From contig CAVTBU010000006.1 in assembly GCA_963733035.1 (NCBI GenBank), forward strand, positions 237,665-301,664: a stretch of 64,000 nt of DNA, written 5' to 3'. Shown piece after piece: positions 1-14,042 of this stretch. A model generated the notes under the pieces. It was given only the letters and a program-made list of their open reading frames with translations. It was not told the origin of the DNA and made no database searches. The stretch is from Pirellulales bacterium. Lineage in GTDB: Bacteria > Planctomycetota > Planctomycetia > Pirellulales > PALSA-1355. Each line of letters begins with the position of its first letter. The first letter of the stretch is position 1. The position numbers and the translations under genes were made by a program.

Positions 1-207
1 GCTTCGAATACGTCATTCATGTCGCGGATCCGTTCGTGCATGATCATCCTTGCGATGTATGTGTGACGCTGGACTGTGACCACATACTAAATAGCGAGTC
101 GCAATTGCGTCGTGAAGCAAACCGACTGCTTTCAGCAAAGTAACTCACTTTCGGCGATTGAAAGCAGGCCAGGCGTCGTGCTACCTTTCTGTTACTCAAC
201 GATGCAC

Positions 208-298
208 TCGTTGGGCCGGTCATCCTGAGTGACCGGGGTATCCGAAGAGCTCGACAGCACGTCCTCGTCCAAGTAGGCACCTGACAACGAGTATCCAG
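208..298. repeat. Left arm of ~100-bp inverted repeat (about 90% identical to the reverse complement of 12268-12365)
   Basis: Direct reverse-complement comparison of the two segments. The spurious ORFs 44..325(-) and 12202..12390(+) share the peptide ITGSLDTRCQ..RALRIPRSL because of this repeat. Confidence 0.8.
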
Positions 299-299
299 A

Positions 300-350
300 G
301 AGCCCGTAATCGGCATGCGCTGCAACAGCGCGCCGACTACGGGCTCTTTT
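300..350 (+). terminator. Hairpin-in-hairpin followed by a T7 run (agagcccgtaatcgg..ccgactacgggctct+ttttttt), immediately 5' of the 352 gene
   Basis: Outer stem agagcccgta/tacgggctct. Inner stem gcgctg/cagcgc. U-run on the + strand. Confidence 0.6.
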
Positions 351-351
351 T

Positions 352-1749
352 TTGTGGGGTTGTCTATCAGGGAGATTCAACGCCATGTATCGCGACCGTC
401 AATACTTGGGAACTAATGAACTAAGGAACAGCACCGCGCAGAGTCGAGCCCACCTGTTTGCGCAAACGCTGCTCGGCAACCAGAGTCCTGCTCCAGTGGC
501 CGGTTCCATGCAATCACATCACGCAAGCGACGCTCTCGAGTTTGTGGCGAGCATCTCAGGCCGAGCACTCGACAGGTTGCGCCAAGTTCGAGCCATCTCG
601 GCACAGGCTCAACGAGATCGAGAGTTGCTCGAATGGCTGGCCTTGATTTCGGACGGGCACGACCGCAAGTTGCGGGAAATTCAGCTCCTGGAAGTGGAAC
701 GGCAACTAGTCGAGCAGCGCTCTGAGCACCGCAGCGACTTGCTTGACCTGCAAGAGGCGGAATGGGACCCCGCCAAACATCCTCGTCGCGGCTCGGCGCC
801 TAATCCAGGGTGGTTCGCGACAACAGGAGGGACGGGGACGGGTGCCGGTTCGTCAACCCCTGGTCGCGCAACCGGTGGCGAATCTAGCAGTGGAAGCGAG
901 GCTTCTACCGTTTCTAAACCTTCGGCCACTGCGCCAAAGAGCACCAAGCTTGATACACCATCAGAGCCGACCAAGCCTTCTCGCGATGGGGTACCGGCGG
1001 TACAAGCCGTCTACTCAGGGCGGAGACAGATAGCAGCGCAACAAGCGGCGTGGCCGTCACCGGTCGGGCATCACTGGGTGCCGATCGGCGTGATTCAGCA
1101 TCCCGACATCCGTCCATTCTTGTCAGATGAGGCCGCCCAATACGCAGCCGGAGCATACTCTGGCCCCACCAGTCCACACCACGGAAACAGGACATATGGC
1201 GACGTTGCCCATCCCAAGTACAGTGCGGAAGTACGGAAGGAACTGAGGGCGTTCATTGACGCGCGCGGCATCAAGAAAATGACGGCAAAGGATATGGCAG
1301 AGTTTACAGACTTGATTAAGGGCGGACGCGGCGCAAACGGAAAGCCAAATAAGGTGATTGCTTCTTTTAACAAGGCCATCAAGGGAATCGTCCCCAAGGG
1401 CACGAAGCCTCTCTCATCAATGGACGAGATCATGGCTGCAGGAGCCAAGCATATGAGGCACTCCCGCTTCAAGCTGTTGGCCGCAGGCGCGGTCATCTCC
1501 GGTGTTCTTGGCGAGGTAATCAACCAGCAAGTGAATGTCTTGGATGTGGCCGCGAACAGCGGTCATTATCGCCGCGCGCTAAAGGCCCTTGAAGAGGGCG
1601 ACCTAAGTAAAGCGCATAGCCTACTCATCGGCGATGGCAATAGCTTGTATCACGAGATACTCGGCCAGGTCGGTGCTCACGCTGCCCTGAATTTCAAGAA
1701 GGCTATGGAACGCGTATTCGAGATGGCAAGAAATCAAGACTATAGGTGA
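352..1749 (+). CDS. Hypothetical protein, paralog A. The N-terminal ~150 aa (RDRELLEW..EWDPAKHPR..G.F) is shared with 11487..12260(-). The C-terminus is unique (polymorphic-toxin-like architecture).
   Basis: ORF of 465 aa. GGGAG lies 9 nt upstream of the ATG. Paralogy to the frameshifted gene at 10933-12260. Confidence 0.6.
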   Translation: MWGCLSGRFNAMYRDRQYLGTNELRNSTAQSRAHLFAQTLLGNQSPAPVAGSMQSHHASDALEFVASISGRALDRLRQVRAISAQAQRDRELLEWLALISDGHDRKLREIQLLEVERQLVEQRSEHRSDLLDLQEAEWDPAKHPRRGSAPNPGWFATTGGTGTGAGSSTPGRATGGESSSGSEASTVSKPSATAPKSTKLDTPSEPTKPSRDGVPAVQAVYSGRRQIAAQQAAWPSPVGHHWVPIGVIQHPDIRPFLSDEAAQYAAGAYSGPTSPHHGNRTYGDVAHPKYSAEVRKELRAFIDARGIKKMTAKDMAEFTDLIKGGRGANGKPNKVIASFNKAIKGIVPKGTKPLSSMDEIMAAGAKHMRHSRFKLLAAGAVISGVLGEVINQQVNVLDVAANSGHYRRALKALEEGDLSKAHSLLIGDGNSLYHEILGQVGAHAALNFKKAMERVFEMARNQDYR

Positions 1750-1814
1750 AGACTTTGCACCGTTGCCATAGCGTCGCTCGAAGCACAACTCACGGCATAA
1801 CTCAATCAGGCGCT

Positions 1815-2429
1815 CTAATGACTTTCGTCCAGACTCAGCAAGACTCGCCCGATATGAGTCGCCAGCAACGAGTGGCCCGAACTTTCATCGCATGAGTGGC
1901 CTGCGGTATGCCAGCGGCTGCGTGGCCCGTCCACAACGAGCCAACCCGGCTTGCCTAGGCGCAATGCGCGCGCCAGTGCAATCAATCGCTGAGGATATCC
2001 CAGCTCCTGAGAAAACTCAGCCACTAGCGTAATGGTCACCGAATCACAGTCCTGAAACGAAGATGGAGGCATCAAATGATCAAACTCATTGGAATGCTCA
2101 GCAATCGACACTTCCGAGATCATTCCAAGATTTCTCATCTCCCAATAGCAGTGGACTGCATAGACATCGTCGGGAGGTCGATCACAGAGATCGTTTGAAA
2201 AGAGGCACAACGTTACACTCCCCACCATTCCGACTCCGACATCGTAGCCATGATAAGCTGTCGAGTCGTTCATACGGTACCTGATCAGCCACACCTCTTT
2301 CGGCTCGCGTGTGGGCGGCCAAGCCACTGTTCGGTGATCGACAATTTTCAGTTCGTCGGGCGCACGGCCGAGCTCGTTCGGATGGGCGAGCCAATCGGCG
2401 AAGGCCGCCATGGCTTGGAAGTTCGGCAA
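1815..2429 (-). CDS. Hypothetical protein
   Basis: 204-aa ORF with no recognisable motif. Confidence 0.4.
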   Translation of the reverse strand: MPNFQAMAAFADWLAHPNELGRAPDELKIVDHRTVAWPPTREPKEVWLIRYRMNDSTAYHGYDVGVGMVGSVTLCLFSNDLCDRPPDDVYAVHCYWEMRNLGMISEVSIAEHSNEFDHLMPPSSFQDCDSVTITLVAEFSQELGYPQRLIALARALRLGKPGWLVVDGPRSRWHTAGHSCDESSGHSLLATHIGRVLLSLDESH

Positions 2430-2548
2430 TTGGCACTCGGAAGGAATGTAACCGCCCTGTTCGAGATCTCTGAGGCACTGTTGTGCTCGGGCAGAATACC
2501 TCGCATCACGACAACATCGCGTCAGCCACGCGAATCCAGCTTGGCGAC

Positions 2549-3406
2549 CTAGTTTGGCCGCTGCATGCGCGCAGCCATTTGCACATCAAGGTCCACATGG
2601 TCTAAGGCTAAGGCCATAAGCGCATCTCGCCCGGAGGTACGAAGATACGGCAACGCCACGGCTGCACTTTGTGCATAGCTGACGTGCTCGCTGTCGGTCA
2701 ACCACTTCTCAAGTTGTTCAATCCCTTTTGGTGTATCAAATGGATGTGCACTGCAAACTCCGTCGCGACACGCGCTATTAGAACAATCGAGGAGGGCCAC
2801 GGCGAGAAAGCCTGTCGGCCGTAAGTTGCTCAATTTAACGAGCAGGCGTTTGCGTTCCGGATGATCGTTTTCATACCGTGCGAGTATGACGCTCCATAGG
2901 CTTGAATCTGGCGCAAAAGCCTTTCGTGCCGCTCGTATCACCGCATCGGTACCCTCGCGCGTACAATACATCGCCAACACGTCCAGGGCGAACAATACGT
3001 CGTCGGCCGGGTGGTGGGCCGGTGTACGCAAGCCTTCGTCGACCACTTTCAGTAGAAGGTCGCCCCCCTGCTTCGCAAGGATTGCGAAGGCGGGACACTC
3101 GGCGCTCTCAACCAAATCAAACAAGTGAATTAGTGAACTCAGTGCAGACCGGTTCACATCCATTGGAGGCAGATCCAAAATCCACTCCAGGACATGGCAA
3201 ATAGCTTCCGCGTCAATACGCGACTTGATAGGTTGCTCGCCCAGCTTCCACAGTTCGTCACTGACGCTTGCACCATGCTCCATTCCGCGTCTCAGTGCTA
3301 AAATCAGAGGCGTGTGTGTTGAGAAGTCGTCGAATCTCATCATCGGTCGGTCACCAAATCCAAATCTTCTGCCCAACTTAATGCTAGCCGAATATGTCGG
3401 GTCCAT
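2549..3406 (-). CDS. Hypothetical protein
   Basis: 285-aa ORF. Confidence 0.4.
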   Translation of the reverse strand: MDPTYSASIKLGRRFGFGDRPMMRFDDFSTHTPLILALRRGMEHGASVSDELWKLGEQPIKSRIDAEAICHVLEWILDLPPMDVNRSALSSLIHLFDLVESAECPAFAILAKQGGDLLLKVVDEGLRTPAHHPADDVLFALDVLAMYCTREGTDAVIRAARKAFAPDSSLWSVILARYENDHPERKRLLVKLSNLRPTGFLAVALLDCSNSACRDGVCSAHPFDTPKGIEQLEKWLTDSEHVSYAQSAAVALPYLRTSGRDALMALALDHVDLDVQMAARMQRPN

Positions 3407-3472
3407 CAGCAGTCAGAGAGCTCAACGCATATCTCGACCTGGCTCGAACCGGCAAGATTTTCAGATTTCCCC

Positions 3473-3502
3473 ATGAACCCACGAAACCCTTCCGGCGTCT
3501 AA
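3473..3502 (+). other. Conserved 9-codon uORF (MNPRNPSGV) at the 5' end of the candidate RNA
   Basis: Copy 2 at 24179..24208 encodes MNQRNPSGV. The Ser codon differs by two nucleotides (tcc vs agc) yet stays Ser. Confidence 0.3.
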
Positions 3503-3712
3503 GGTGTCGACAGGGTCGAGGCCGTGTTGGCGTCCGACTGCAGTTGTGACAAGCTTTTACGGGTTGTTCCTTCCATGATGTTCTTACGGCCAAGACTGTT
3601 CCAAGAACACGTAGCCGGGAGTTATTGCGCAGCACAAACGATTGCTGCAAGGTAATTCCCCCGCGCTACCGCTACGCTTGTGACGCTTGGCCTTTAGGTC
3701 TGCTGGCTGCCA

Positions 3713-3747
3713 AAGCCCGATGTCACAAGGACATCGGGCTTTTTTGT
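3713..3747 (+). terminator. Rho-independent terminator (10-bp stem, 6-nt loop, T6)
   Basis: gcccgatgtc acaagg acatcgggc tttttt. Confidence 0.7.
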
Positions 3748-3791
3748 TAGCCTCATGTCGCGCGACAGCGGGAACCAAACAACAAACGAAT

Positions 3792-3863
3792 GGGTCGGTA
3801 GCTGAGACGGTTTAGCGGTGGCCTGAAAAGCCGCAGACGAGGATTCGAGCGCCTCCCGACCCA
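3792..3863 (+). tRNA. tRNA-Phe(GAA)-like
   Basis: Acceptor gggtcgg/ccgaccc. Anticodon loop CTGAAAA. T-loop TTCGAGC. Confidence 0.5.
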
Positions 3864-3899
3864 CTGCGCTCTGCGTGCGCGCTGACGGAGAACACTCAC

Positions 3900-3972
3900 G
3901 GCTCGTTCGTCTATCGGTTCAGGATACTGCCCTTTCAAGGCGGAGAGGTGGGTTCGATTCCCACACGAGCTA
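3900..3972 (+). tRNA. tRNA-Glu(TTC)
   Basis: TCGTCTA..GGA D-arm typical of Glu. Anticodon loop CTTTCAA. Acceptor ggctcgt/acgagct. Confidence 0.6.
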
Positions 3973-3990
3973 CTGAAGCAACAAAATCAT

Positions 3991-4062
3991 CGGGCTGAAG
4001 AGGGACGGCGCCTCGCGTGCCTTGGGAGCACGAGACAGTCGGTTCGACTCCGACCTGCCCGA
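3991..4062 (+). tRNA. tRNA-Pro(TGG)
   Basis: Anticodon stem cgtgc/gcacg. Loop CTTGGGA. T-stem gtcgg/ccgac. Confidence 0.55.
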
Positions 4063-4072
4063 CTTGCGTGAC

Positions 4073-4144
4073 GGTAGTTGAGGGCTGGTTGCCCAAACCC
4101 GGCTGATAACCAGGTGGCGCTGAGTTCGATTCTCAGAACTACCA
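4073..4144 (+). tRNA. tRNA-Ile(GAT)
   Basis: Acceptor ggtagtt/aactacc is perfect. Loop CTGATAA. Confidence 0.6.
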
Positions 4145-4233
4145 CTGAACGAGAGATCACAAGAAGGAGAAACGACGTTGGCAACTCGCATGCGACTCAA
4201 ACGCATACGCCCACTCCACATTCGGGGTCGTGG

Positions 4234-4305
4234 CGTAACGGCAGCGCTTCCGCCTTTTAAGCGGGAAGGTAAGGGTTCGACTCCCTTCGGCCCCACTGCG
4301 TTGGC
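4234..4305 (+). tRNA. tRNA-Lys(TTT)
   Basis: Acceptor ggggtcg/cggcccc. Loop CTTTTAA. Confidence 0.6.
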
Positions 4306-4333
4306 TTCGGCCAGCGATCGCGGCGGCGCGTAG

Positions 4334-4406
4334 CTCAGTGGTGAGAGCAGGTCTCTTATAAGGACCAGGTCGAGGGTTCGATTCCCTCCGCGCCCACTGT
4401 GCGCGC
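4334..4406 (+). tRNA. tRNA with anticodon TAT (Ile-UAU type, unusual), C1-C72 mismatch
   Basis: D-arm gctc-agtggtgaga-gagc. Anticodon stem ggtct/ggacc. Loop CTTATAA. Confidence 0.45.
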
Positions 4407-4427
4407 AGAAACGAGGAACAACACGAA

Positions 4428-4500
4428 CGGGATCAAGGTGCTAGCGGCAGCATGCCTGGCTCTTAACCAGGTCGGTGAGGGTTCAAGTCCCTCTGATCCC
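4428..4500 (+). tRNA. tRNA-Lys(CTT)
   Basis: Acceptor gggatca/tgatccc. Loop CTCTTAA. T-loop TTCAAGT. Confidence 0.6.
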
Positions 4501-4630
4501 ACTGGAAACAGGCGAGAGGCACGAGGCCACAGGCTAGAGGGCGACCTTGAACCTCTACTGCTGACCTCTGGTCTCTCGCCTCAGGCCTCTGGCCTGTTTC
4601 GATCTTTGACAATTCGACCAGCGATTCGAC

Positions 4631-4697
4631 GCGCCCATGATGTAGCGGTAGCCTGCTGCCTTGCCATGGCGTGCGGGTTCAACTCCCGCTGGGCGCT
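4631..4697 (+). tRNA. Atypical short tRNA-like (Gly-GCC-like loop TTGCCAT), no variable region
   Basis: Acceptor gcgccca/tgggcgc is perfect. Only 67 nt. Possible pseudogene. Confidence 0.35.
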
Positions 4698-4704
4698 TCA
4701 ATTT

Positions 4705-4778
4705 CAGGGTGTGGGATAGCCTGGTAGTCCGCCTGCGTCGGGAGCAGGAGAGCGTCGGTTCAATTCCGACCACCCTGA
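4705..4778 (+). tRNA. tRNA-Pro(CGG)
   Basis: Acceptor cagggtg/caccctg. Anticodon stem cctgc/gcagg. Loop GTCGGGA. Confidence 0.5.
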
Positions 4779-4816
4779 CTTTTTGAGAACGCTCTGACCG
4801 GTACAATGAGCGAATC

Positions 4817-5134
4817 ATGAATTGGCTTACGCCGTGGACTCCGATTGTCGAAAGCGATCGCGCGGAAATGCTGACTACCGAACTTCGTCGCGAAGTTGGA
4901 GTCGGCCACGTGCTGTTCGGCATTCCGGTAAAACCAATTGCAATTCGCCAAGATTGCGACGACGTGCTCTTCGAGCTTCTTGATGGCTCGGGCCGATTCG
5001 CCGTCACTCACTTGACGTACGCTCAGCATCCCGAGCCAGATTCGCAATGGCCTGCAACTCGTCTCTGTGACGATTTGACTCAATTCGAGCGGAGCATCAT
5101 GCACGTCGATCATTCGACCGCGACCGGCTTATAG
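4817..5134 (+). CDS. Hypothetical protein embedded in the tRNA array
   Basis: 105-aa ORF between tRNAs. Confidence 0.4.
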   Translation: MNWLTPWTPIVESDRAEMLTTELRREVGVGHVLFGIPVKPIAIRQDCDDVLFELLDGSGRFAVTHLTYAQHPEPDSQWPATRLCDDLTQFERSIMHVDHSTATGL

Positions 5135-5151
5135 CGATCGACTCCAGCTCG

Positions 5152-5225
5152 GAGGGTGTAGCGAAGCCTGGCATCGCGCAAGCTCGGGGAGCTTGAGATC
5201 GCAGGTTCAAATCCTGCCACCCTGA
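5152..5225 (+). tRNA. tRNA-Pro(GGG)-like (G1-G72 mismatch)
   Basis: D-arm gcga/tcgc. Anticodon stem caagc/gcttg. Loop TCGGGGA. Confidence 0.45.
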
Positions 5226-5244
5226 CTCGAACGTCGTCGATTGT

Positions 5245-5793
5245 TCAGCGCTTCCAAATCGTTACGTCGCTGCTGATCGCGATCAATAGCGTTCGGCCAG
5301 TGTACGAAAAGCCAAACCCGCGAAGCTCACGCTCAATGGCTAGTTTCCAGAATCGTGAGGCAGGTGGATAGATGCTCTCGTACTTGCCAAGAAGCAAAAG
5401 ACTTGTGTCCGGCCAATCGATGGACAAGGCTTCGACGCCCCATCCGTCATCGGTCTGAGTCGGGAGGCCACCACCGACAAGTCCACAGACGCGAATCTCC
5501 CTTCCATCAAGTGGACCAAATCCGATGGCAGTCATGGCGTCTTTGCCGAACCACGATTCTTGATCTGATTCGTCACGATCTCGAGCGACTTTTTCGCCGG
5601 TGCGGCAATCGATGATTCCACGCCCTTGAGACGACAGTACCAGTAGCAGTTCAGAGTCGTCCGCAAAACCAATCTCAGTAAGTCCGCCAATTGCGACGGA
5701 CGCGACGAACGACCATGGCTCTGGCGGAGCGGTGACCGCAGCACGGCGAATTTTGTCTCGCACAGGTTCGAGGTGGTCCATAAGGTTTGCCAT
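5245..5793 (-). CDS. Hypothetical protein embedded in the tRNA array
   Basis: 182-aa ORF. Confidence 0.4.
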   Translation of the reverse strand: MANLMDHLEPVRDKIRRAAVTAPPEPWSFVASVAIGGLTEIGFADDSELLLVLSSQGRGIIDCRTGEKVARDRDESDQESWFGKDAMTAIGFGPLDGREIRVCGLVGGGLPTQTDDGWGVEALSIDWPDTSLLLLGKYESIYPPASRFWKLAIERELRGFGFSYTGRTLLIAISSDVTIWKR

Positions 5794-5836
5794 GGGTTCA
5801 TAGGATGGCTCGCCAGTATACCGGATTGATCAATAT

Positions 5837-5911
5837 TGCGGTGGGGCCTGTGTTGGTACAGGCAGGCGCCTGTTAAGCGCCCCTTCGCAGGTTCGATTCC
5901 TGCCGCCGCAG
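5837..5911 (+). tRNA. tRNA-Asn(GTT)
   Basis: D-stem gcct/aggc. Anticodon stem ggcgc/gcgcc. Loop CTGTTAA. Confidence 0.6.
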
Positions 5912-5933
5912 CTTTCTAGGGACGGAAGGGCAA

Positions 5934-6017
5934 GCCAATGGGCGATGGCAGCTGTTTCGAAAACAGTCGAGCGATGAGCCTTGAGGGTTCGACTCCCTCT
6001 CCTTCCGCTTCGTGCTC
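5934..6017 (+). tRNA. tRNA-Ser(CGA), class II
   Basis: Loop TTCGAAA. 16-nt variable arm. T-stem gaggg/ccctc. Confidence 0.55.
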
Positions 6018-6021
6018 TTGG

Positions 6022-6093
6022 CCGATCGGCAGAGGCGTCAGCCTTCCAAGCTGAACAGGCGGGTTCGATTCCCGCAGAGCACTTTCGATCAAT
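6022..6093 (+). tRNA. tRNA-Gly(TCC)
   Basis: Acceptor gtgctct/agagcac. Anticodon stem tcagc/gctga. Loop CTTCCAA. Confidence 0.6.
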
Positions 6094-6106
6094 CATTCGG
6101 GGATCG

Positions 6107-6177
6107 GCTAATGGTCGGCCGCCTGGCTTTGAACCAGGCTATGGTAGTTCGAATCTACCTCCCCGAGCTTGGAAGAC
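6107..6177 (+). tRNA. tRNA-Gln(TTG)
   Basis: Acceptor tcgggga/tccccga. Stem cctgg/ccagg. Loop CTTTGAA. Confidence 0.55.
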
Positions 6178-6184
6178 TACCGCC

Positions 6185-6262
6185 CTGCGCTCGATTGCCG
6201 CCCGGCAATCGTGCTCGGTTGCTGGTTTGATTCCTTCTCCCCGAACTCGGTGACAAAACATT
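6185..6262 (+). pseudogene. Degenerate tRNA-like element (T-stem not pairable). Related to 12700-12772.
   Basis: Shared ctaccgccctgcgctcg..gtgctcggttgctggtt. The hairpin has a CCC loop with compensatory stem changes between copies. Confidence 0.35.
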
Positions 6263-6336
6263 CCGGGGTAGCTGCTGCTGGTAGTGGCGCCTGGCTCTGA
6301 ACCAGGAGGTCGTTGGTTCGATTCCAACTCCCGGAG
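6262..6336 (+). tRNA. tRNA-Gln(CTG)
   Basis: Stem cctgg/ccagg. Loop CTCTGAA. T-stem gttgg/ccaac. Confidence 0.55.
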
Positions 6337-6356
6337 CTGTTTCGAACGACACGATC

Positions 6357-6442
6357 GGAAGTCATCCGGCCGGATGAGGAGCCTGTCTTGAAAACAGGTG
6401 GCGGCCTCGCGCCGCTTGTGGGTTCGAGTCCCACGGCTTCCG
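6357..6442 (+). tRNA. tRNA-Ser(TGA), class II
   Basis: Stem cctgt/acagg. Loop CTTGAAA. 20-nt variable arm. Confidence 0.55.
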
Positions 6443-6470
6443 CTCAACAGGTCGATTCGTTCAGCAACAC

Positions 6471-6541
6471 AGTCCCGTGGTCCAACGGCAAGACTCCTGC
6501 GTCACATCCAGGAAACGATGGTTCAACTCCATCCGGGACTA
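6471..6541 (+). tRNA. tRNA-Val(CAC)
   Basis: Acceptor agtcccg/cgggact. Loop GTCACAT. Same family as Val(GAC) at 7870. Confidence 0.5.
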
Positions 6542-6547
6542 CTCGAT

Positions 6548-6621
6548 GTCCAGGTACGCCAATTGGCAGAGCGGCACGGCTTAAACCCGCGCGGATGCCG
6601 GTTCGACTCCGGCCTTGGGCA
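6548..6621 (+). tRNA. Class I tRNA with anticodon TAA (Leu-type anticodon but no long variable arm)
   Basis: Loop CTTAAAC. Only 5-nt variable region. Confidence 0.4.
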
Positions 6622-6631
6622 CTGTCAACGC

Positions 6632-6704
6632 GGCTCGGTCGGCAACGGCAGACCACCTTGGCTTAGAACCAAGGATGCTGTGGGTTCGAATCCCACCTGA
6701 GCTA
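6632..6704 (+). tRNA. Class I tRNA with anticodon TAG (Leu-type anticodon, short variable arm)
   Basis: Stem cttgg/ccaag is perfect. Loop CTTAGAA. 73 nt. Confidence 0.45.
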
Positions 6705-6718
6705 TTTAGTAGAGACTC

Positions 6719-6793
6719 GTCCTCGTGGAGTAGTCTGGAGTGCTCGCCTGCCTGTCACGCAGGAGATCACGGGTTCAAATCCCGTCGGGGACG
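6719..6793 (+). tRNA. tRNA-Asp(GTC)
   Basis: Stem cctgc/gcagg. Loop CTGTCAC. Acceptor gtcctcg/cggggac. Confidence 0.6.
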
Positions 6794-6875
6794 CCTTTTG
6801 ATTGTTGTACGCGAAATCGTCTGTGGCGCGGAGTGTTCCGCAACGCCTCGACGAACTGCAACGCAACGTAAATCT

Positions 6876-6949
6876 GGCACGGTACGCCAATCGGCTGAGC
6901 GGCGAAGCTCAAACCTTCGTGTCTGCGGGTTCGACTCCCGCCTGTGCCA
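6876..6949 (+). tRNA. Class I tRNA with anticodon CAA (Leu-type anticodon, short variable arm)
   Basis: Stem cgaag/cttcg. Loop CTCAAAC. Confidence 0.45.
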
Positions 6950-6955
6950 CTGTTC

Positions 6956-7042
6956 GGGTTGTGCTCCTCGTGGCGGCCTGTAAAGCCGTTGTCACAAAAG
7001 AAGCGAGGTGGGCGACGAATGGTTCGATTCCTTCACAACCCA
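6956..7042 (+). tRNA. tRNA-Tyr(GTA)-like, class II, weak T-stem
   Basis: Acceptor gggttgt/acaaccc is perfect. Loop CTGTAAA. Long variable arm. T-stem has only 3 of 5 pairs. Confidence 0.4.
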
Positions 7043-7047
7043 ATTGA

Positions 7048-7120
7048 GGCCCGCTCGTCTATCGGTTGAGGACGCCAGCCTCTCAAGCTGGAAGGACGGG
7101 TTCGATTCCCGTGCGGGTCA
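7048..7120 (+). tRNA. tRNA-Glu(CTC)
   Basis: TCGTCTATCGG..GGAC D-arm. Stem ccagc/gctgg. Loop CTCTCAA. Confidence 0.6.
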
Positions 7121-7126
7121 CTGTAT

Positions 7127-7209
7127 GGCCAAGTGGTGTAACTGGTAAACACGCGACGCTCAGAACGTCGTGCCCTTGCGGCGTGGGAGTTCGAGTCTCC
7201 CCTTGGTCA
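7127..7209 (+). tRNA. tRNA-Leu(CAG), class II
   Basis: Stem cgacg/cgtcg. Loop CTCAGAA. 14-nt variable arm. T-loop TTCGAGT. Confidence 0.6.
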
Positions 7210-7226
7210 CTGAAATATTGAATTGA

Positions 7227-7295
7227 CGCAGGTGAGCCAGTGCTCAGCCGAGTTTCATAAGCTCAGCCCGTCGGGTGCGACACCCGAACCTGCAA
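7227..7295 (+). tRNA. tRNA-Met(CAT)-like with C1-A72 mismatch (initiator-like) and non-canonical T-loop TGCGACA
   Basis: Loop TTCATAA. Acceptor cgcaggt/acctgca. Short (69 nt). Confidence 0.35.
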
Positions 7296-7300
7296 CTTAC

Positions 7301-7376
7301 GGCCGGGTACGCAAACTGGCAAAGCGACGAGGTCGAGAGCCTCGTGATTTTGTGAGTTCGACTCTCACTCCGGTCA
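7301..7376 (+). tRNA. tRNA with anticodon GAG (Leu-GAG-like, 9-nt variable region)
   Basis: Stem cgagg/cctcg. Loop TCGAGAG. T-stem gtgag/ctcac. Confidence 0.45.
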
Positions 7377-7405
7377 CTTGAATGAGATTGCGGCCAAAAC
7401 TGATC

Positions 7406-7843
7406 CTACAGTGCGAGCACGCGGCACACCTCTCGAATCCAGATCTCACCGATCCATTCCAGGTCGGCATACGGAGAGATGCGTGAAGCGGTCCAGCCGC
7501 TTTCGTCGAGTACTCGCATCATGCCGGGTGCCGCCAAGGCGTTCGTTGTGTGGATGATCACTGGGCATGTCGGCGGTTTCGTCGCGAGAAAGTCGGCCAC
7601 ATCGCGTCCGGTGCCGGGGTCACGCATGACACCGCCGATCAATCGGTTGGGTCCGAGATCGTGATCGAGGCAGATGAGAATCGGTTCGCCGCAGTGAACC
7701 TTCAGCCAGACGATCATATCTGGTGCATTGTCGAACACAATTGATTCATGGCCTGGGCAGCGACTTGCGAGGCACGGCAACATTGCGGCGATCCGTTCCG
7801 GCTCGTCGTCAAGAATTGCGACTACTTTTGATTCGCTTGCCAT
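7406..7843 (-). CDS. Stand-alone receiver (REC/CheY-like) fold protein, possibly of the cyclic-phosphate-processing receiver type
   Basis: ILDDEPE acidic pocket, CLDHDLG candidate phospho-acceptor region, no output domain, 145 aa. Sits inside the tRNA array. Confidence 0.4.
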   Translation of the reverse strand: MASESKVVAILDDEPERIAAMLPCLASRCPGHESIVFDNAPDMIVWLKVHCGEPILICLDHDLGPNRLIGGVMRDPGTGRDVADFLATKPPTCPVIIHTTNALAAPGMMRVLDESGWTASRISPYADLEWIGEIWIREVCRVLAL

Positions 7844-7869
7844 GTCAACAAGTCTAACAAATCACATTC

Positions 7870-7942
7870 GATCCCGTGGTCCAACGGCTACGACGCCTGG
7901 ATGACACCCAGGAGGCAGATGGTTCAACTCCATCCGGGATCA
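7870..7942 (+). tRNA. tRNA-Val(GAC)
   Basis: Acceptor gatcccg/cgggatc is perfect. Stem cctgg/ccagg. Loop ATGACAC. Confidence 0.55.
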
Positions 7943-7952
7943 TTTGCGAATC

Positions 7953-8023
7953 GGTCTGTAGGTGTGTTCGGCGGCACACCTCCTCGGTAAGGAGGAAGGC
8001 CGGGTTCGACTCCCGGACGGACC
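7953..8023 (+). tRNA. tRNA-Thr(GGT)
   Basis: Stem cctcc/ggagg is perfect. Loop TCGGTAA. Confidence 0.5.
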
Positions 8024-8093
8024 TTCAACCGAGCACGCGACATAGGCGTGCCGCGAGCGCAGGGCGAAAGGAATCGAGATGGATAGAAGTGAG

Positions 8094-8167
8094 GGGCTGC
8101 TGGTCCAACGGCAAGACGCTTGGATTGAAGTCAGCGTCGATGGCAACGGCGGATCGACGCTCGTCAA
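8094..8167 (+). pseudogene. Degenerate tRNA-like fragment lacking a T-arm
   Basis: Acceptor and D region gggctgctggtccaacggcaaga match neighbouring tRNAs, but there is no TTCGA T-loop. Confidence 0.3.
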
Positions 8168-8173
8168 ATACAT

Positions 8174-8244
8174 GGGCTGCTCGTCCAACGGGAAGACGCC
8201 TGGCTTGCAACCAGGAAATCGGGGTTCGACTCCCCGGCGGTCCA
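8174..8244 (+). tRNA. tRNA-Ala(TGC)
   Basis: G3-U70 present. Stem cctgg/ccagg. Loop CTTGCAA. Confidence 0.6.
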
Positions 8245-8255
8245 CTGAATAAAAC

Positions 8256-8326
8256 GGGCTCATGGTCCAAAGGGAAGACATCAGGCTGGCAGTCTGAAGA
8301 TCCGGGTTCAATTCCCGGTGAGTCCA
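8256..8326 (+). tRNA. tRNA-Ala(GGC)
   Basis: G3-U70 present. Stem tcagg/tctga. Loop CTGGCAG. Confidence 0.55.
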
Positions 8327-8344
8327 CTGATACGGGAAACCTTT

Positions 8345-8647
8345 TTACATCGGAATACCGGCATCAATCGCAGCTTGTCGATTGTGGCCGGGTTCGAGAA
8401 GTGTCGTTCCTTGATAGACCTCGACGTTCGCGTCCATGAGATCAGAAAGAGGCAGCTCAACATAGACCTGGGTATTACGGTCGGTCTCGACAACGTTGAA
8501 CCACGGTTGTGCAACGAAACTGCGCACCTGGATTTCCAGTGACTCGCCGGGCAACAGCGTGAAGTCGTGAGGCCACGGCTCGACCCAAATGACGCGCAAT
8601 TGCGCTTCGTCGTTGGTCACGCCGATCTTTGCGAAGAACTCACTCAT
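8345..8647 (-). CDS. Hypothetical protein
   Basis: 100-aa ORF ending 43 bp from the IS copy. Confidence 0.4.
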   Translation of the reverse strand: MSEFFAKIGVTNDEAQLRVIWVEPWPHDFTLLPGESLEIQVRSFVAQPWFNVVETDRNTQVYVELPLSDLMDANVEVYQGTTLLEPGHNRQAAIDAGIPM

Positions 8648-8689
8648 TACCCTAGCGTATTGCGGAAGCGTACGACAAACAAGTGATTC

Positions 8690-10500
8690 GGAAGGTAGAT
8701 GCTATGGCAGCGGCGAGGGACTGCGTTAGGCTCCGAGTCACGAGGGATTGTTTTATCCGTTGTTTTGAGGAGCTCAATCATGGCCACTCGACCGCAAGAC
8801 TGCAGCACAACGAAGCCAGTACTGTTCCTGGGTCTCGAATTAGGGCAGCGAACCTGGAAGTTGGGGTTCACCGTGGGTTTGGGTCAGAAGCCGCGGCGAC
8901 GTGAGATCGCTGCCGGTTGCATTCAGGCACTGAAACGAGAGATCAATGAGAGTAAGCAACGTTTTGGTCTGCCTGCGGATGTGGAGGTGATTAGCTGTTA
9001 CGAGGCAGGCCGTGATGGGTTTTGGCTGCATCGTTGGCTGGTGTCTGAGAACGTCACAAACTTGGTGGTTGACTCGTCTAGCATTCAAGTGCCGCGGCGG
9101 CAGCGACGGGCCAAGACCGATCGTCTGGATTTGGAACAATTGTTGACCATGTTGGTGCGCTGGCATCAGGGCGAGTCGAAAGTCTGGAGCGTGGTGACGG
9201 TGCCGAGTGAAGCGGAAGAGGACGTTCGGCATTTGCATCGCGAGTTGGAAACGCTGCGGGCGGAACAGACCAGCCACATCAATCGAATCAAGGGGCTGTT
9301 GATCGGTTGCGGCGTGGTGATTGATGTGAACCGCTGGCTACCGAAACGGCTCAAAGCAATACGGCTTTGGAATGGCTCGCCGTTGACCAGCGATTTGCGG
9401 CAACGGGTATTGCGGGAGTTCGAGCGGATGCAGGTGGTCAATCGACAGGTTCGCGAGCTGGAAAAGGAGCGTGCCGCCCGGATTCGCAGCAACGAAACTG
9501 ACAAGAGCGTCGCCCAGGTGCGGACGTTGTTGGGCGTGAAGGGCATCGGCGTCAACAGCGCGTGGATGTACGTGCAGGAGGTGTTTGGCTGGCGAAAGAT
9601 CAAGAATCGTCGTCAATTGGGTGCGCTCGTGGGGCTGACCGGCAGTCCGTATAGCAGCGGCAACTTGGAGCGCGATCAGGGAATTACAAAGGCTGGAAAC
9701 CGCCGGATGCGAACAATGGCTGTCGAAATCGCCTGGGGATGGTTGGCATTCCAACCCGGCAGCGATCTGAGCCGTTGGTATCACGATCGATTCGCGGCCG
9801 GAAACAAGCGTCTTCGTCGCATTGGAATTGTGGCGCTGGCAAGAAAGCTGTTGGTGGAGTTGTGGAAATACCTGGAGACCGGCGTGCCGCCTTGCAACGC
9901 GGAGCTGACCGAGTGGGAGGACAAGATTCACTACACCCCTTCCCTTACGCCGGCGTAGCGATTGGATCGGTGCGAGTATGGAGCGTCTGAACGACTGACG
10001 TCGAGACTGGAAAGCGACCGAGTATCCGGCGGGTACGAGTTAGGCTCACCGAAAGGTAGATGGGATCGCTTTCATTATGGCTTCCCGAGAGCGTCCAGGA
10101 CGCATAGGGCATAGGGTGATCGGCGATGATGCCGGCACGGATAGAAGCTAGTCGTTGGCCTCGGCCACAACGATCAGCGGAAGCCGCCAGTCATGACGTT
10201 GAACCGACAGAAGAAGTGTTTTGAGGAATGGCAGGACAAATGAATGTGCATCCCAGCACGGCTCCAGCCGCGGCGTGCGGCCAGAGCCGTCACGGAATCA
10301 TTCACCCGCCCTGACCTGGCTATCCCTTGTTGGGTTGCTCTTCAGCAGAGCTCAACTCCGTTTCACCAGGCAGGCGAAAGTATATCACGACTCAACGTTG
10401 GATGAGGAGCTTGACAGGTGCGCATCCATAGAAGCCGGATACGGTTGGCCGGGCCGCTCTGCTAAGGCGGTTCCCGCTCGTCGGGATGAGGGTTCGAATC
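8690..10500 (+). mobile_element. IS110-family insertion sequence, copy 1. The 1811-bp repeat unit is identical apart from 1 nt to 25952-27762.
   Basis: Repeat boundaries defined by alignment of the two copies. The transposase is followed by a ~540-bp non-coding 3' region. No terminal inverted repeats, as expected for IS110/IS1111. Confidence 0.75.
8780..9958 (+). CDS. IS110-family transposase (DEDD N-terminus plus a C-terminal transposase_20-like region)
   Basis: N-terminal VLFLGLELGQRTWKLGF and C-terminal LLGVKGIGVNSAWMYVQEVFGW..ALARKLLVELWKYL motifs. Start moved to MATRPQD. Confidence 0.8.
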   Translation: MATRPQDCSTTKPVLFLGLELGQRTWKLGFTVGLGQKPRRREIAAGCIQALKREINESKQRFGLPADVEVISCYEAGRDGFWLHRWLVSENVTNLVVDSSSIQVPRRQRRAKTDRLDLEQLLTMLVRWHQGESKVWSVVTVPSEAEEDVRHLHRELETLRAEQTSHINRIKGLLIGCGVVIDVNRWLPKRLKAIRLWNGSPLTSDLRQRVLREFERMQVVNRQVRELEKERAARIRSNETDKSVAQVRTLLGVKGIGVNSAWMYVQEVFGWRKIKNRRQLGALVGLTGSPYSSGNLERDQGITKAGNRRMRTMAVEIAWGWLAFQPGSDLSRWYHDRFAAGNKRLRRIGIVALARKLLVELWKYLETGVPPCNAELTEWEDKIHYTPSLTPA

Positions 10501-10554
10501 GGGCACCGCGGCAAAGCCGTGGTCTACCTTCCGCTGGTGAAAAGGCTCCTCCAA

Positions 10555-10917
10555 TCACTTCGCCTGTTCCACGTCGATCGCGGCCCGCAGCTCCTCAACA
10601 TTCGCGAATTGTTGAAGTGGAAGATCGAACGAGTAGTCGAGATCAATGATTCGAAGGGGGATGCCGAGATGCCTTTGAACGATCAGCGCGGCACTTAGGG
10701 CGGCGTCTGTCATCCCCGATATCGAGATCGCGTCGCGTTTCCGGCTGAGGTCGACCATCGTGAAGTCGTCGCCCTCAGAATAGTCCGCTTCAATTGGGAT
10801 TCCGATGGACGTATTATATCGAATCTCACCGAATCCCCTGACCGACTTGAAAATGTCTTGCAACGCCTCGACGGTAAATAGCCGTTTGTCGTCGCTGAAC
10901 AGCAGAAGACTTTGCAT
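10555..10917 (-). CDS. Hypothetical protein, candidate immunity-type partner just downstream of the nuclease-like toxin C-terminus
   Basis: 120-aa acidic ORF 15 bp downstream of 10933. Confidence 0.35.
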   Translation of the reverse strand: MQSLLLFSDDKRLFTVEALQDIFKSVRGFGEIRYNTSIGIPIEADYSEGDDFTMVDLSRKRDAISISGMTDAALSAALIVQRHLGIPLRIIDLDYSFDLPLQQFANVEELRAAIDVEQAK

Positions 10918-10932
10918 AGCAATTACGTACTC

Positions 10933-12260
10933 CTAGGGCTCGAGTCGCACCTTGCCGGGCACGGATAGTTCCTTGAGCAGGGCTTCAAAAGCTGACTTCG
11001 CCTCGGGCGAGTTGGTGATGATTTCGATTGATTTAAAAGGCGTTTCGCCACTCTTGATAATTGTGCGAACTCTCGTCAAATCGTCACGCACTTTGTCCAG
11101 AATCACGGCCCGGATGTCCTCTCGGATAGATGAGCCGGGCACATAAGGACTCTTGCCGGCCTTCGCTACGTGCTTCGCTTCAAGAATTATCGTATCCCGG
11201 TATCCATCGATTGCAAAAGACTGGCCGCCGCCTGATATCGTGTAGTTGTAGGGGCCGGTCTGCTTGATTTCATATTGACTCGCTGCCGATTTCGTGGGTG
11301 TAGGCTTGCGAGGAAGCTTCGCGACGAAGTCATCAAGAGTGCCTCCCACTTTTCCAGGAACTTTGCGAAGCGCCCTGCCGAGCACAGCCTTCCCGAGTCG
11401 CAGGATTGCCGGTGCGGCCACGACGGCGGATGCAATTTCAAACTCAATGCCGGTTGACTGCAAACCACTCGGTGTGCCGCCCCTGGCTACGGCATGCCCG
11501 ACTTCCTCGATACCCTTGCCACCGACGATCGTCTCTGCCGGGGTGAACGCCGAATGCTGTTTCGCTGGGCGTGATAGCTCTTAATGCGTTTCGGCAATTC
11601 CTTGATTTGGCGACGGGTGTGATCCAATGCATTCTTTGTCTGCCACCAAGCGTGTGCCAGGTCCAGCATGTGTGAGTCGGAACCGTCGGACTCGTCGCTT
11701 CCGCCGCTACCGGGCCCCTTGCTGCGGGGTGAGCGACTCTTGCCGGTGTTGATTCCGCCCCCACCGCCCCCCTTATTGATCCACTGCCCGCCGATCGGCG
11801 TTCCCTTGGGCGCCCGGGGATGATCGGCCTCGTTCCATTCGACAACAAGTGAGTCTGATTCAGTGAATCGCTCGATCGCATGCCACGTCCTGCTGTCCCG
11901 TGCCTCGATCTGTTGAATCGCACGCAGTTTGTCTTCCGCCTCGGCCGAGATCTGAGCTGCCCATTCCAGAAGCTCACGATCGCGACGAGCGTTGGCTTCG
12001 GCGGATTGCAGCTCGCGCAGCTCCTTTGCCTGTCGATACGAGAATCGTGCTAGCCGCCCCAACTCCTCGCGTTGAGCTTTCGCCTGTGCCTCGGGAGGCA
12101 TCATTCGTGGAATCGGCCTACCGAGAATCGCTTGTGCAAATAGCCAACCTTCGCTGGGCTGCGAAACTCCGGCGACATCCCGTGTCTTTTTGTAACGGTC
12201 CATGACGCTCCTCTTCATGGGTGCGAGAAAAAGAGCCCGCACCCGGTGCGCGCTTCGCAA
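10933..12260 (-). pseudogene. Paralog B of the 352..1749 gene, disrupted by at least two frameshifts. Its C-terminal domain is PD-(D/E)xK nuclease-like.
   Basis: Three consecutive reading frames (11487..12260, 11444..11977, 10933..11463) each match successive parts of paralog A (RDRELLEW / DHPR motif / HHWVPIGV ~ MHWITPV). The first frame switch is at the C/G homopolymer tract near 11755-11775. The C-terminus has AIDGYRD..ILEAKH. Confidence 0.6.
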
Positions 12261-12290
12261 GCGCGCACCGATTACGGGCTCTTTGGATAC
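12224..12290 (-). terminator. Hairpin-in-hairpin plus U-run on the minus strand, mirror copy of 300-350, immediately 5' of paralog B
   Basis: agagcccgtaatcgg..ccgggtgcgggctct with inner stem tgcgcgc/gcgcgca. The inner stem differs from copy A by compensatory changes. Confidence 0.55.
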
Positions 12291-12365
12291 TCGTTGTCAG
12301 GGGCCTACTGGCACGAGGACGTGCAGTCGAGCTCTTCGGATACCCCGGTCACTCATGGTGACCTT
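12268..12365. repeat. Right arm of the inverted repeat (partner of 208-298)
   Basis: Reverse-complement alignment. Confidence 0.8.
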
Positions 12366-12525
12366 GCCCAGCGATCAGCTCGCCGATTGATTCGGAACCT
12401 AGCACAAAGGGCGGCCTAGTTTCTAGTCGAAGATTTAATGGAGTGATTGGTCTGAGCAAATACGTCGCGCGAACCGTGCGGCGTGGATCTGTTTCCTTTT
12501 CTAATGTCTCAGCTCGCCTCGATGG

Positions 12526-12605
12526 TGAAACGGACGATCACTCCTTGCTTCTAACAAGGCCCGGTATTTCTGGGAGACGCGGGGGTTCGAATCCTGGTCG
12601 GGGCA
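12526..12605 (+). tRNA. tRNA-Arg(TCT)-like with an enlarged variable region and an imperfect T-stem
   Basis: Acceptor gcctcga/tcggggc. Stem ccttg/caagg. Loop CTTCTAA. Related to 27793-27865. Confidence 0.4.
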
Positions 12606-12699
12606 TTTTGAAGAAGAGTGGTTGGTGGTCAGTGGCTAGTGGTCAGTGAAGCAAGGGGCGGCGAACACAAAGCGTGCTCGTCTGTCCTACCTGTGGCCT

Positions 12700-12772
12700 G
12701 TGGTCTACCGCCCTGCGCTCGGCAGATGCCCATCTGCCGTGCTCGGTTGCTGGTTCAATTCCTCGGCGAGGC
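12700..12772 (+). pseudogene. Degenerate tRNA-like element
   Basis: Related to 6185-6262 and to the 3' part of tRNA-Arg(TCG) at 29219. T-stem disrupted. Confidence 0.3.
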
Positions 12773-12793
12773 ACTGAGAAGGCGGCGAGTTGA

Positions 12794-13444
12794 ATGATCA
12801 TGTTGCGAGCGATCCTAACAGCGTTGAGACGATTCCTGTTTGGCCAGCCTGTGGCCAGCAGGGTGACCGCGAAGAAACCGTCGGCAGAAGCCGTCGCGTG
12901 TGCGGTCGTTCATTCGACGACGTCGGCGGATCGCAACGAAGGGAGGCCTACCATGAACGCAGCCTATGACAAACTATGCGAACACCTGACCAACCAGAAC
13001 GTCGGCTTTTGGTCGCGCAGCGAGGACTTGTCGATCTGCACCGACTTTCGGGGCGAGGTCGGTACGTACCGGATCTTCGCTCGGATTGATGCTGATGACA
13101 GCTTGTTCCAGGTCTTCGGTCATTCGCCGGTTCGCGTTCCGCCAGGCTCGCGGCCGGCGATCGCCGAGGCCGTGGCGCGGATCAACTGCGGTCTGAAGGT
13201 CGGCAAGTTCGAGATGGATTGTGACGAGGGCGAGCTGCGGTTCCAGGCGGCCCAGATCCTGCCCGACGACGATCTCGACGAGCAGACGATTCGGCGACTG
13301 ATTGGTACGACCATGTCGATGTTGAACATTTACCTTCCGGCCATCTTGTCGGTCATCTACGGCAACGAACTGCCGAAGGATGCCGTCAGACACGCAGAGC
13401 CCGGGCGGTATGTGTCCGACGAAAACGAGCGCGGTGAGGCCTGA
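12794..13444 (+). CDS. YbjN-like protein (T3SS-chaperone-like fold), copy 1
   Basis: 216 aa, ~93% identical to 29313..29957. Two-lobed pattern GTYRIFARIDADDSLFQVFGHSP / ELRFQAAQILPDD fits the YbjN family. Confidence 0.45.
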   Translation: MIMLRAILTALRRFLFGQPVASRVTAKKPSAEAVACAVVHSTTSADRNEGRPTMNAAYDKLCEHLTNQNVGFWSRSEDLSICTDFRGEVGTYRIFARIDADDSLFQVFGHSPVRVPPGSRPAIAEAVARINCGLKVGKFEMDCDEGELRFQAAQILPDDDLDEQTIRRLIGTTMSMLNIYLPAILSVIYGNELPKDAVRHAEPGRYVSDENERGEA

Positions 13445-13457
13445 TCACCGCGCATTT

Positions 13458-13530
13458 GTCCTCGGAGTGTGCCGGATTCGCACGCGACCCTGCGAAGGTC
13501 GAGGACCAGGTTCAACTCCTGGCGAGGACA
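13458..13530 (+). tRNA. tRNA with anticodon GCG (Arg-GCG, unusual isoacceptor), copy 1
   Basis: Acceptor gtcctcg/cgaggac is perfect. Stem cgacc/ggtcg. Loop CTGCGAA. T-stem ccagg/cctgg. Confidence 0.5.
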
Positions 13531-13577
13531 TTTTGGAATGTCGCGGGATTGTGTACCGTAGTAGCGGGAGACACTCA

Positions 13578-14042
13578 ATGAACTTGCAGCATGAAAATCA
13601 CGGTCCCTTGCCGACGCGCGAGGACATTAATGTCTTCGACTCGCTTGACGAACGTTGCGCTTGCGATCACTTTTTGGGCAAGAACATGGACGAGGCTCAG
13701 GCACTGTTCAGTGATAATTTCTTGCGTTACCAGGAGGATTTGGTGTTTATGGGGCCTCGTGCCTTCCGCTTCTACGTTCATGCTGCCATGCAATACCTCA
13801 TGAGCCCCGATGCCTCAGGTGACGGCGATGCCGCCAACAGTTTCGCAGGGCTACTTGAATTCAGACTTGAACATGAGAGGAACGAAGTGCAGCCAGTGGC
13901 AGGTGAGCTAGCGCGGATATGCAATTACCTCTTCGAAAATATTAGTCGATTCGAATGTGAGCCATCCATCTATGGCGATGTTGGCGCTCGTTATGCAGCT
14001 CTGAATAGCGCGCTCGAACAACTCGCCACGACACAGCCCTAA
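13578..14042 (+). CDS. Hypothetical protein
   Basis: Approximately 154-aa ORF starting MNLQHENH. Confidence 0.4.
   Translation: MNLQHENHGPLPTREDINVFDSLDERCACDHFLGKNMDEAQALFSDNFLRYQEDLVFMGPRAFRFYVHAAMQYLMSPDASGDGDAANSFAGLLEFRLEHERNEVQPVAGELARICNYLFENISRFECEPSIYGDVGARYAALNSALEQLATTQP

Follow-up and report, generated by a model that had tools for sequence, protein, structure and literature searches.

A conserved leader RNA ending in a terminator precedes polymorphic-toxin-like genes in Planctomycetes and is a candidate transcription attenuator

Introduction

Transcriptional riboswitches and the ribonucleic antiterminator (RAT) hairpins of the BglG/LicT/SacY type are structured leaders that lie between a promoter and a gene and end in a terminator. 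The locus described here is in a 64,000-nt stretch of DNA from a Pirellulales bacterium (GenBank assembly GCA_963733035.1, contig CAVTBU010000006.1, positions 237,665 to 301,664), referred to below as the window, and includes two inverted copies, or arms, of a leader RNA of about 155 nt that face each other across 12 kb. This leader has the same overall layout as RAT hairpins and transcriptional riboswitches, and also shares with them conserved unpaired nucleotides, a possible helix overlapping the 5′ strand of the terminator and association with a single class of genes. It differs in that it has no Rfam match, in that the genes behind it are polymorphic-toxin-like rather than metabolic or transport genes, and in that its switch is a candidate. 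On balance, we regard the leader as probably a regulated transcription attenuator of these genes, working either in the manner of a riboswitch or with a protein factor, and not a recombination site.

Polymorphic toxin systems were described by Zhang et al. 2012 (PMC3482391), where Tox-REase-2, a domain encoded at one end of the 12-kb segment, is listed for Actinobacteria only. Like polymorphic toxins, the products of the genes behind the leader combine a shared N-terminal domain and a Gly-rich linker with variable C-terminal modules (Tox-REase-2, HNH-like), and SUKH or Imm1 genes are found downstream in related loci. However, their N-terminal domain has no counterpart among described trafficking domains. 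We know of no polymorphic toxin system for which a conserved, structured leader ending in a terminator has been described.

In type III toxin–antitoxin systems (ToxIN), a repeated RNA is followed by a terminator and then by the toxin gene. The present locus also has a structured RNA, an intrinsic terminator and a toxin gene served by a single promoter, and its RNA includes two short direct half-repeats, but the toxins are DNase-like with protein immunity, and there is neither a tandem array of ~36-nt repeats nor a processing endoRNase. Inverted repeats around a block of genes are also seen in composite transposons and in invertible switches such as fim, hin and the shufflons. In contrast to these, no dedicated recombinase was found among the main interior open reading frames of the locus and no target-site duplication is evident, and the repeats are promoter-leaders with their own genes that are single elsewhere.

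The inverted arms and their fold

A repeat search of the window placed the arms at 218–333 and 12248–12363 (116 nt, 87 % complementary), and BLASTN widened the match to 208–351 versus 12374–12228 (85.7 % over 147 nt, E 3e-39). No third copy was found by BLASTN in the 64-kb window. In global alignment, the two leaders are identical at 132/158 positions (84 %), and the longest identical run between the arms is ~29 bp. An initial annotation of the window, made from the sequence alone, had described the arms as reverse complements of ~90 % identity. The inverted repeat is real, but the identity is 84–87 % and not 90 %. Read inward, the similarity sets in with a promoter-like box and tails off around the start codon, and it takes in the promoter-like boxes at 158–187 and 12396–12425, which lie beyond the arms as first delimited.

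Read inward, each arm forms small hairpins at its 5′ end and then a long, interrupted hairpin that is rich in GC and has a U-run behind it. The folding energies are −66.8 kcal/mol for the left arm and −77.1 kcal/mol for the right (z-scores −4.8 and −5.7, respectively), and 0/200 shuffled sequences were as stable. The initial annotation had seen in each arm a hairpin within a hairpin followed by a U-run, and both arms do fold in this way, with 7 U on the left and 5 U on the right. It had also noted that the inner stems differ by compensatory changes, and these (GCGCUG/CAGCGC versus GUGCGCGC/GCGCGCAC) are genuine.

From its 5′ end, the leader consists of the hairpins P0 and P1, a near-invariant unpaired GGGUAUCCGAAGAG and, next, the short helix P2, whose tip varies in length. 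A second UAUCC..AGAG stretch lies 3′ of P2 and is followed by the GC-rich hairpin with its U-run. The left leader RNA (motif copy 1; 186..353, + strand) scores 128.3 bits with the covariance model (E 3e-31). Its elements, placed from fold and covariation, are P0 at 197–213, P1 at 216–236, the invariant GGGUAUCCGAAGAG at 236–249, P2 formed by 249–253 with 288–292 around a 34-nt insert, the terminator stem at 297–349 and the U-run at 347–353. The right leader RNA (motif copy 2; 12228..12396, − strand; 148.5 bits, E 2e-36) folds with P0 at 12385–12369, P1 at 12363–12347, GGGUAUC at 12345–12339, P2 formed by 12332–12328 with 12293–12289, the terminator at ~12286–12233 and the U-run at 12232–12228.

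Covariation was assessed in an alignment of 20 copies, the two arms and 18 from other loci (see below). In this alignment, which was fitted to the covariance model and so somewhat favours the pairing figures, 96.8 % of cells are paired, versus 33–47 % when the partners are slid. Compensatory changes were found at 15 pairs, and 0/500 shuffles reached the observed values. Free covariation is seen in P0, in P1 and in the inner stem of the terminator, and the base of the terminator stem is invariant. P2 (GCUCG/CGAGU) is also invariant, save for one compensation, U-A to G-C, in L026. Its tip carries one of three different inserts or none, and such tips are typical of a real helix. About 35 nt are near-invariant, namely the GGGUAUCCGAAGAG before P2 and the stretch UAUCC..AGAGCCCG that runs into the terminator base. 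A GC-rich stem followed by a U-run is present on the transcribed strand and the reverse strand has no U-run, as in an intrinsic terminator. The covariation supports a conserved structured RNA of the 5′ untranslated region. A simple promoter/terminator scanner picked up just part of the right hairpin, missed the bulged terminators and the promoter-like box, and was uninformative.

When the whole window was searched against Rfam (Rfam 15, 4227 families) at gathering thresholds, tRNAs alone passed. With E values up to 10 allowed, the best matches for the two arms were 14–22 bits against thresholds of 47–268 bits, which is hairpin noise. Membership of the T-box, ANTAR or RAT classes was considered and set aside, as there is no Rfam match to any of them and the hairpin loops are of 5 nt. 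ANTAR targets are dual hexaloops, unlike these 5-nt loops. A leader peptide was also rejected, as the leader alignment shows no conserved small open reading frame (ORF).

Identity between the arms is 84 % over the leader, versus 58 % over the opening 450 nt of the coding sequences behind them; shuffled sequences are 53 % identical. The RNA thus appears to be under selection, being kept far better than the coding sequence behind it, which is near the random level. In the model alignment, the arms are 78 % identical to each other and each is 77–79 % identical to the copy in L017, which is from an unrelated metagenome. Concerted evolution of the two arms was considered and rejected, neither being closer to the other than to L017. 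The likeness of the arms therefore reflects a constraint on the RNA across the whole family, and no special tie links one end of the 12-kb block to the other.

Occurrence of the leader in other genomes

An exact 25-mer of the arm was found in five other metagenome-assembled genomes of Planctomycetes/Pirellulales, and a 19-mer in six metagenome contigs. Five further matches to the same 19-mer were due to chance, being unrelated and without the rest of the element. A covariance model, R1, built from 12 leader copies then added seven loci that had been fetched via protein homologs alone (L006, L021, L022, L026, L027, L028 and L029; 92–139 bits), so that the leader is present in 7/10 of the distinct loci fetched in that way. 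These seven copies keep most of the ~35-nt core. The total is 20 copies, comprising the two arms and 18 in genome and metagenome contigs of Planctomycetes/Pirellulales.

A gene of one family lies downstream in 18/18 of the copies for which downstream sequence is available, including broken remnants in L001 and L004. The distance from the U-run to the homologous start is 6–106 nt over all such loci; it is 6–31 nt in most and usually 21–31 nt. Each of the other loci has one leader copy, and reverse-strand matches are confined to the palindromic hairpin. No inverted partner was found at any of the 18 other copies within flanks of up to 8–9 kb. The arms are hence very probably two instances of a conserved leader RNA that goes with one gene family, and not recombination sites. 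A link between the leader and tRNA arrays was also entertained and was dropped, because a tRNA is nearby in only 1/15 of the other motif loci.

The initial annotation had raised the possibility that the arms are the recombination site of an invertible segment, and had seen the 12-kb block as a composite unit. Under either view, the arms would be recombination sites, substrates for homologous recombination that inverts the block, or the terminal repeats of a composite mobile unit. The block is indeed flanked by two inverted copies of ~147 bp and has an IS110 copy inside it, and the identical run of ~29 bp could support rare RecA-dependent inversion. But the 18/18 other copies are single, the similarity spans exactly the region from promoter to ATG, unlike the end of a mobile element, and no target-site duplication or flanking direct repeat is evident. 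Pfam searches of the main interior ORFs gave only the DEDD transposase of IS110, cREC_REC and Tox-REase-2, with no serine or tyrosine recombinase. A duplicated tRNA/IS110 block at 24–31 kb in the window has neither arm. Inversion would also lack the logic of a switch, because it would swap two equivalent promoter-leaders. We therefore consider this explanation very unlikely, and the block looks like a composite unit because two paralogous units happen to face each other.

It had also been allowed that the arm might turn out to be a generic REP-like repeat in unrelated contexts. This was not seen, and the element is confined to one context. A dispersed repetitive extragenic palindrome (REP) or miniature inverted-repeat transposable element (MITE) would, like the arm, have a palindromic hairpin. 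However, the 64-kb window has just two copies, all real matches in the genome and metagenome collections are upstream of one gene family, and the element is strand-specific apart from that hairpin. A degenerate two-anchor pattern of the motif gave no match in viral contigs. The chance that the arm is such a repeat is negligible.

The promoter-like box

The left box (158..187, + strand) has TTGAAA at 158–163, GGCCA in the spacer at 167–171 and an extended −10 sequence, TGcTACCTT, at 179–187. The right box (12396..12425, − strand) has TAGAAA at 12425–12420, the GGCC spacer motif and an extended −10 sequence, TGcTAGGTT, that ends at 12396. The left box aligns with boxes upstream of 13 other motif copies, and the consensus in the upstream alignment is [T/C][T/A]GAAA, GGCCA in the spacer and TGnTAnnnT. 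In its sequence, the box is similar to sigma-70 promoters of the extended −10 type and is taken here as a putative promoter. The same box precedes the homologous gene of L008 (~3810–3845), which has a different leader. As the box is found there without the RNA, the RNA sits between the promoter and the gene.

One unusual feature for a plain sigma-70 promoter is the invariant GGCC(A) of the spacer, which is kept even without the RNA motif. It may represent an operator or reflect the use of an alternative sigma factor.

The downstream genes

The initial annotation had each arm followed by one of two inward-reading paralogous genes. The paralogy holds (32 % identity over 179 aa, E 1e-15), but the right-hand gene, given as 10933..12260, consists of two ORFs in different frames. 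The left paralog (385..1749, + strand; 454 aa) starts at an ATG at 385, 31 nt past the left arm, with a ribosome-binding site, AGGGAG, at 369–374. Its product has an N-terminal coiled-coil domain bearing the motif EW..HPR..G.W, joined by a Gly/Ser/Thr-rich linker to a conserved C-terminal domain that carries GHHW.P. The 27 homologs found are all unnamed. On the right, the N-terminal ORF (11487..12203, − strand; 238 aa, ATG at 12203) is identical to the database protein P0028 and, in a tblastn comparison, shares 61 % identity with residues 1–213 of the full-length homolog of L005 before going out of frame. The C-terminal part, in another frame (~10933..11556, − strand), includes the conserved TPAETIVGGKGIEEVG... 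segment and a Tox-REase-2 domain (Pfam PF15646, 28.9 bits with a cut-off of 27.6, E 1.4e-6). This part is 81 % identical to residues 263–332 of the L005 protein (frame +3), and ~49 aa are missing between the two parts.

The left and right paralogs have ~150 N-terminal residues in common and the remainder differs. The common region consists of coiled-coil repeats (RELLEW..IS...LR) and the motif EW..HPR..G..GxW, and is followed by the Gly-rich linker. SUKH/Imm1 immunity genes lie downstream of family genes in L021, L023 and L029, and L021 also has a weak match to an HNH/colicin-DNase domain. A shared N-terminus is thus combined with variable C-terminal toxin domains, and because of the Tox-REase-2 domain, the downstream immunity genes, the weak HNH match and the shared N-termini with differing C-termini, the family is seen from its sequences to have the architecture of polymorphic toxins. 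We refer to the genes as toxin-like.

The N-terminal domain belongs to no Pfam, NCBIfam or PHROGs family and has no recognized secretion or trafficking domain. For the left paralog, searches of NCBIfam, PHROGs and PDB sequences were empty, and a Pfam search of 21 family members gave a single AHH match (E 0.87), despite the GHHW.P motif of its C-terminal domain. An AlphaFold model of the protein (predicted local distance difference test score, pLDDT, 64) shows only long helices, and a Foldseek search of this model against PDB found nothing below E 2. The C-terminal parts of L002, L005, L017 and the left paralog are without an assigned domain.

Directly downstream of the Tox-REase-2 domain is a 120-aa ORF (10555..10917, − strand), a candidate immunity gene by its position. 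It has no family match, and by analogy with the SUKH/Imm1 genes of L021, L023 and L029 it may encode an immunity protein.

The gene behind the left-paralog homolog in L006 (5386–6363), L007 (5217–6134), L008 (5341–6252) and L027 (2526–3482) lies on the same strand, encodes ~300–325 aa and belongs to no Pfam family. The products of the partner genes in L006, L007 and L008 are 47–56 % identical to one another; the L027 neighbour encodes 318 aa. No trace of this ~300-aa partner gene was found in the window at 1750–3500 on either strand, and two unassigned ORFs (1815–2429 and 2549–3406, both − strand) are in its place.

The N-terminal domain and the toxin part are in separate or overlapping ORFs in many family members, among them L021, L022, L023–L025 (protein P0046) and L029, as well as in the window at 11487–11560. 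The P0046 split, into overlapping ORFs of 176 aa and 384 aa, is probably not an assembly error, because it recurs identically on five contigs from different samples. Possible explanations for the split are recoding, phase variation in the run of Gly codons or a genuine two-gene organization. Some of the other ORF breaks may be indel errors of long-read sequencing.

Attenuation and a candidate switch

The interval of 6–31 nt between the U-run and the start codon in most copies is too short for a second promoter. The toxin gene must therefore be transcribed through the terminator, and because read-through is needed for its transcription, the leader is best read as a transcription attenuator. An attenuator or terminator, or another functional RNA, was among the possibilities offered by the initial annotation, and this suggestion is supported by the terminator-like hairpin at the end of the leader, the 18 further loci in which the leader is found before homologous genes and the covariation in its stems.

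By default, a short terminated RNA would be made and the toxin gene would be off. A signal, either a small ligand or an RNA-binding protein that recognizes the invariant unpaired nucleotides, would then favour an alternative fold, in which GGGUAUC (236–242 in the left leader) pairs with the candidate partner GAGCCC (300..305, + strand) in the 5′ strand of the terminator, and transcription would read through. This helix is pairable in 20/20 copies and is predicted by RNAalifold when the 3′ strand of the terminator is withheld. In L021, GGGUAUC has a C in place of a G, and the terminator has the corresponding changes, C to G in its 5′ strand and G to C in its 3′ strand.

A second candidate antiterminator, in which AAGAGCUCG would pair with the 3′ strand of the terminator, was rejected, as substitutions in L026 and L021 break it yet preserve P2 and the terminator.

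Several observations weigh against a regulated attenuator with this switch. The GGGUAUC:GAGCCC helix is composed almost entirely of invariant nucleotides, and its variation is limited to the L021 change and a wobble in L011. Its mean predicted probability in nascent transcripts is 0.49, and the values for the two window copies are 0.21 and 0.0. Because a single coordinated event stands in an otherwise invariant helix and the probability in the window copies is low, the pairing is put forward as a tentative model. The invariance of the core is in part a product of how the copies were gathered, because 13/20 were retrieved by an exact match to it. A strict sigma-70 scan flagged neither of the promoter-like boxes, no conserved regulator gene was seen adjoining the leader copies, and the leader was not found in three distinct homologous loci (L007, L008/L009 and L023–L025), so that it is not obligatory for the gene family. 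Promoter activity, termination, read-through, the switch and its trigger are all predictions from sequence.

A rival reading is a constitutive leader that does not switch, with a leaky terminator fixing the toxin mRNA at a low level and the 5′ hairpins stabilizing the transcript. The terminator is far stabler than the alternative helix, and the latter is weakly predicted in several copies. However, a plain terminator needs neither the ~35 near-invariant unpaired nucleotides upstream of it nor an invariant stem base while the rest of the stem covaries freely, and we judge this alternative distinctly unlikely.

The leader might instead be a free-standing small RNA gene that acts in trans, perhaps regulating or neutralizing the adjacent toxin in the manner of a type III toxin–antitoxin system, with read-through secondary. 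The unit from promoter to terminator is discrete and conserved, a short RNA is the predicted default product, and the two GUAUCC..AGAGC(U/C)CG half-repeats could be protein-binding sites. Against this, the toxins carry DNase domains of more than one fold and are accompanied by protein immunity genes (SUKH, Imm1), in contrast to the RNases of type III systems. No complementary target came to light, and no search aimed at one was made. Further, there is no room for a promoter belonging to the gene itself, and the RNA is therefore part of the mRNA leader in any case. A trans-acting role is the less probable explanation, although one to be kept in mind.

We continue to favour regulated attenuation. 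That the leader represents a new class of riboswitch or a new site for an antiterminator protein, which would sense a signal such as a metabolite or second messenger linked to crowding or stress and switch on interbacterial nuclease toxins in Planctomycetes, is a speculative extension.

tRNA arrays and IS110 elements in the window

The initial annotation listed a tRNA array, a REC-like gene and an IS110 element in the interior of the 12-kb block, and each was recovered. There are 27 tRNA genes at 3792–8327, a gene with the Pfam domain cREC_REC (cyclic-phosphate processing receiver; 7406–7843, − strand) that, like other non-tRNA ORFs, lies between tRNAs, and an IS110-family transposase gene (8699–9958; Pfam, DEDD). 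The window has two large tRNA arrays, one at 3792–8327 and 12516–14158 and the other at 24526–30819 (44/45 predicted tRNA genes, all on the + strand). The arrays are partly duplicated, with 97 % identity between 7301–7378 and 24893–24968 and 98 % between 8173–8297 and 25518–25642. The ~430 nt upstream of each array (3457–3869 and 24163–24622) are 78 % identical, and this stretch presumably holds the array promoter or what had been called a leader RNA in the initial annotation.

The IS110-family element is present twice, at 8690–10500 and 25952–27762 (1811 bp, 99.9 % identical), and each copy follows the tRNA-Ala(ggc) gene of the array in which it is inserted. In array 2, the IS110 copy ends at 27762 and tRNA-Arg(tct) begins at 27793, leaving 30 nt between them. 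In array 1, a 2-kb toxin module (10500–12516), made up of the immunity candidate, the broken toxin gene, the leader and the promoter, lies between IS110 and tRNA-Arg(tct). This difference is due either to insertion of the toxin module into array 1 or to its deletion from array 2. The tRNA-Arg(tct) genes themselves differ in length, with 90 nt at 12516–12605 (31.8 bits in Rfam) versus 73 nt at 27793–27865 (81 % identity, ~17 nt extra). The 90-nt gene may have an insertion or an intron, or may be a decaying copy.

Two further features are associated with the arrays. Between tRNA-Lys(ctt) and the tRNA gene that follows it, there is a 36-nt inverted repeat at 4505–4600 (81 % complementary, 24-nt spacer, GGC/AGG-rich). 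A YbjN-like gene (PF10722) is found among the tRNA genes at 12794–13444, and its duplicate in array 2 is at 29271–30058 (93 % identity).

Significance

Removing a false lead has some value in itself, as the 12-kb tRNA/IS110 block is not bounded by a recombination system. What flanks it is a leader that is a candidate for an undescribed, lineage-restricted motif of polymorphic-toxin-like genes in Planctomycetes, and hence for a new gene-control RNA. As far as we are aware, little is known of how polymorphic toxin genes are activated, and gene regulation in Planctomycetes is poorly characterized. A covarying orphan leader found exclusively with toxin-like genes provides a concrete and experimentally testable handle. 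If the reading as a new riboswitch or antiterminator site is true, polymorphic toxin genes would have in this leader their first dedicated switch at the level of RNA.

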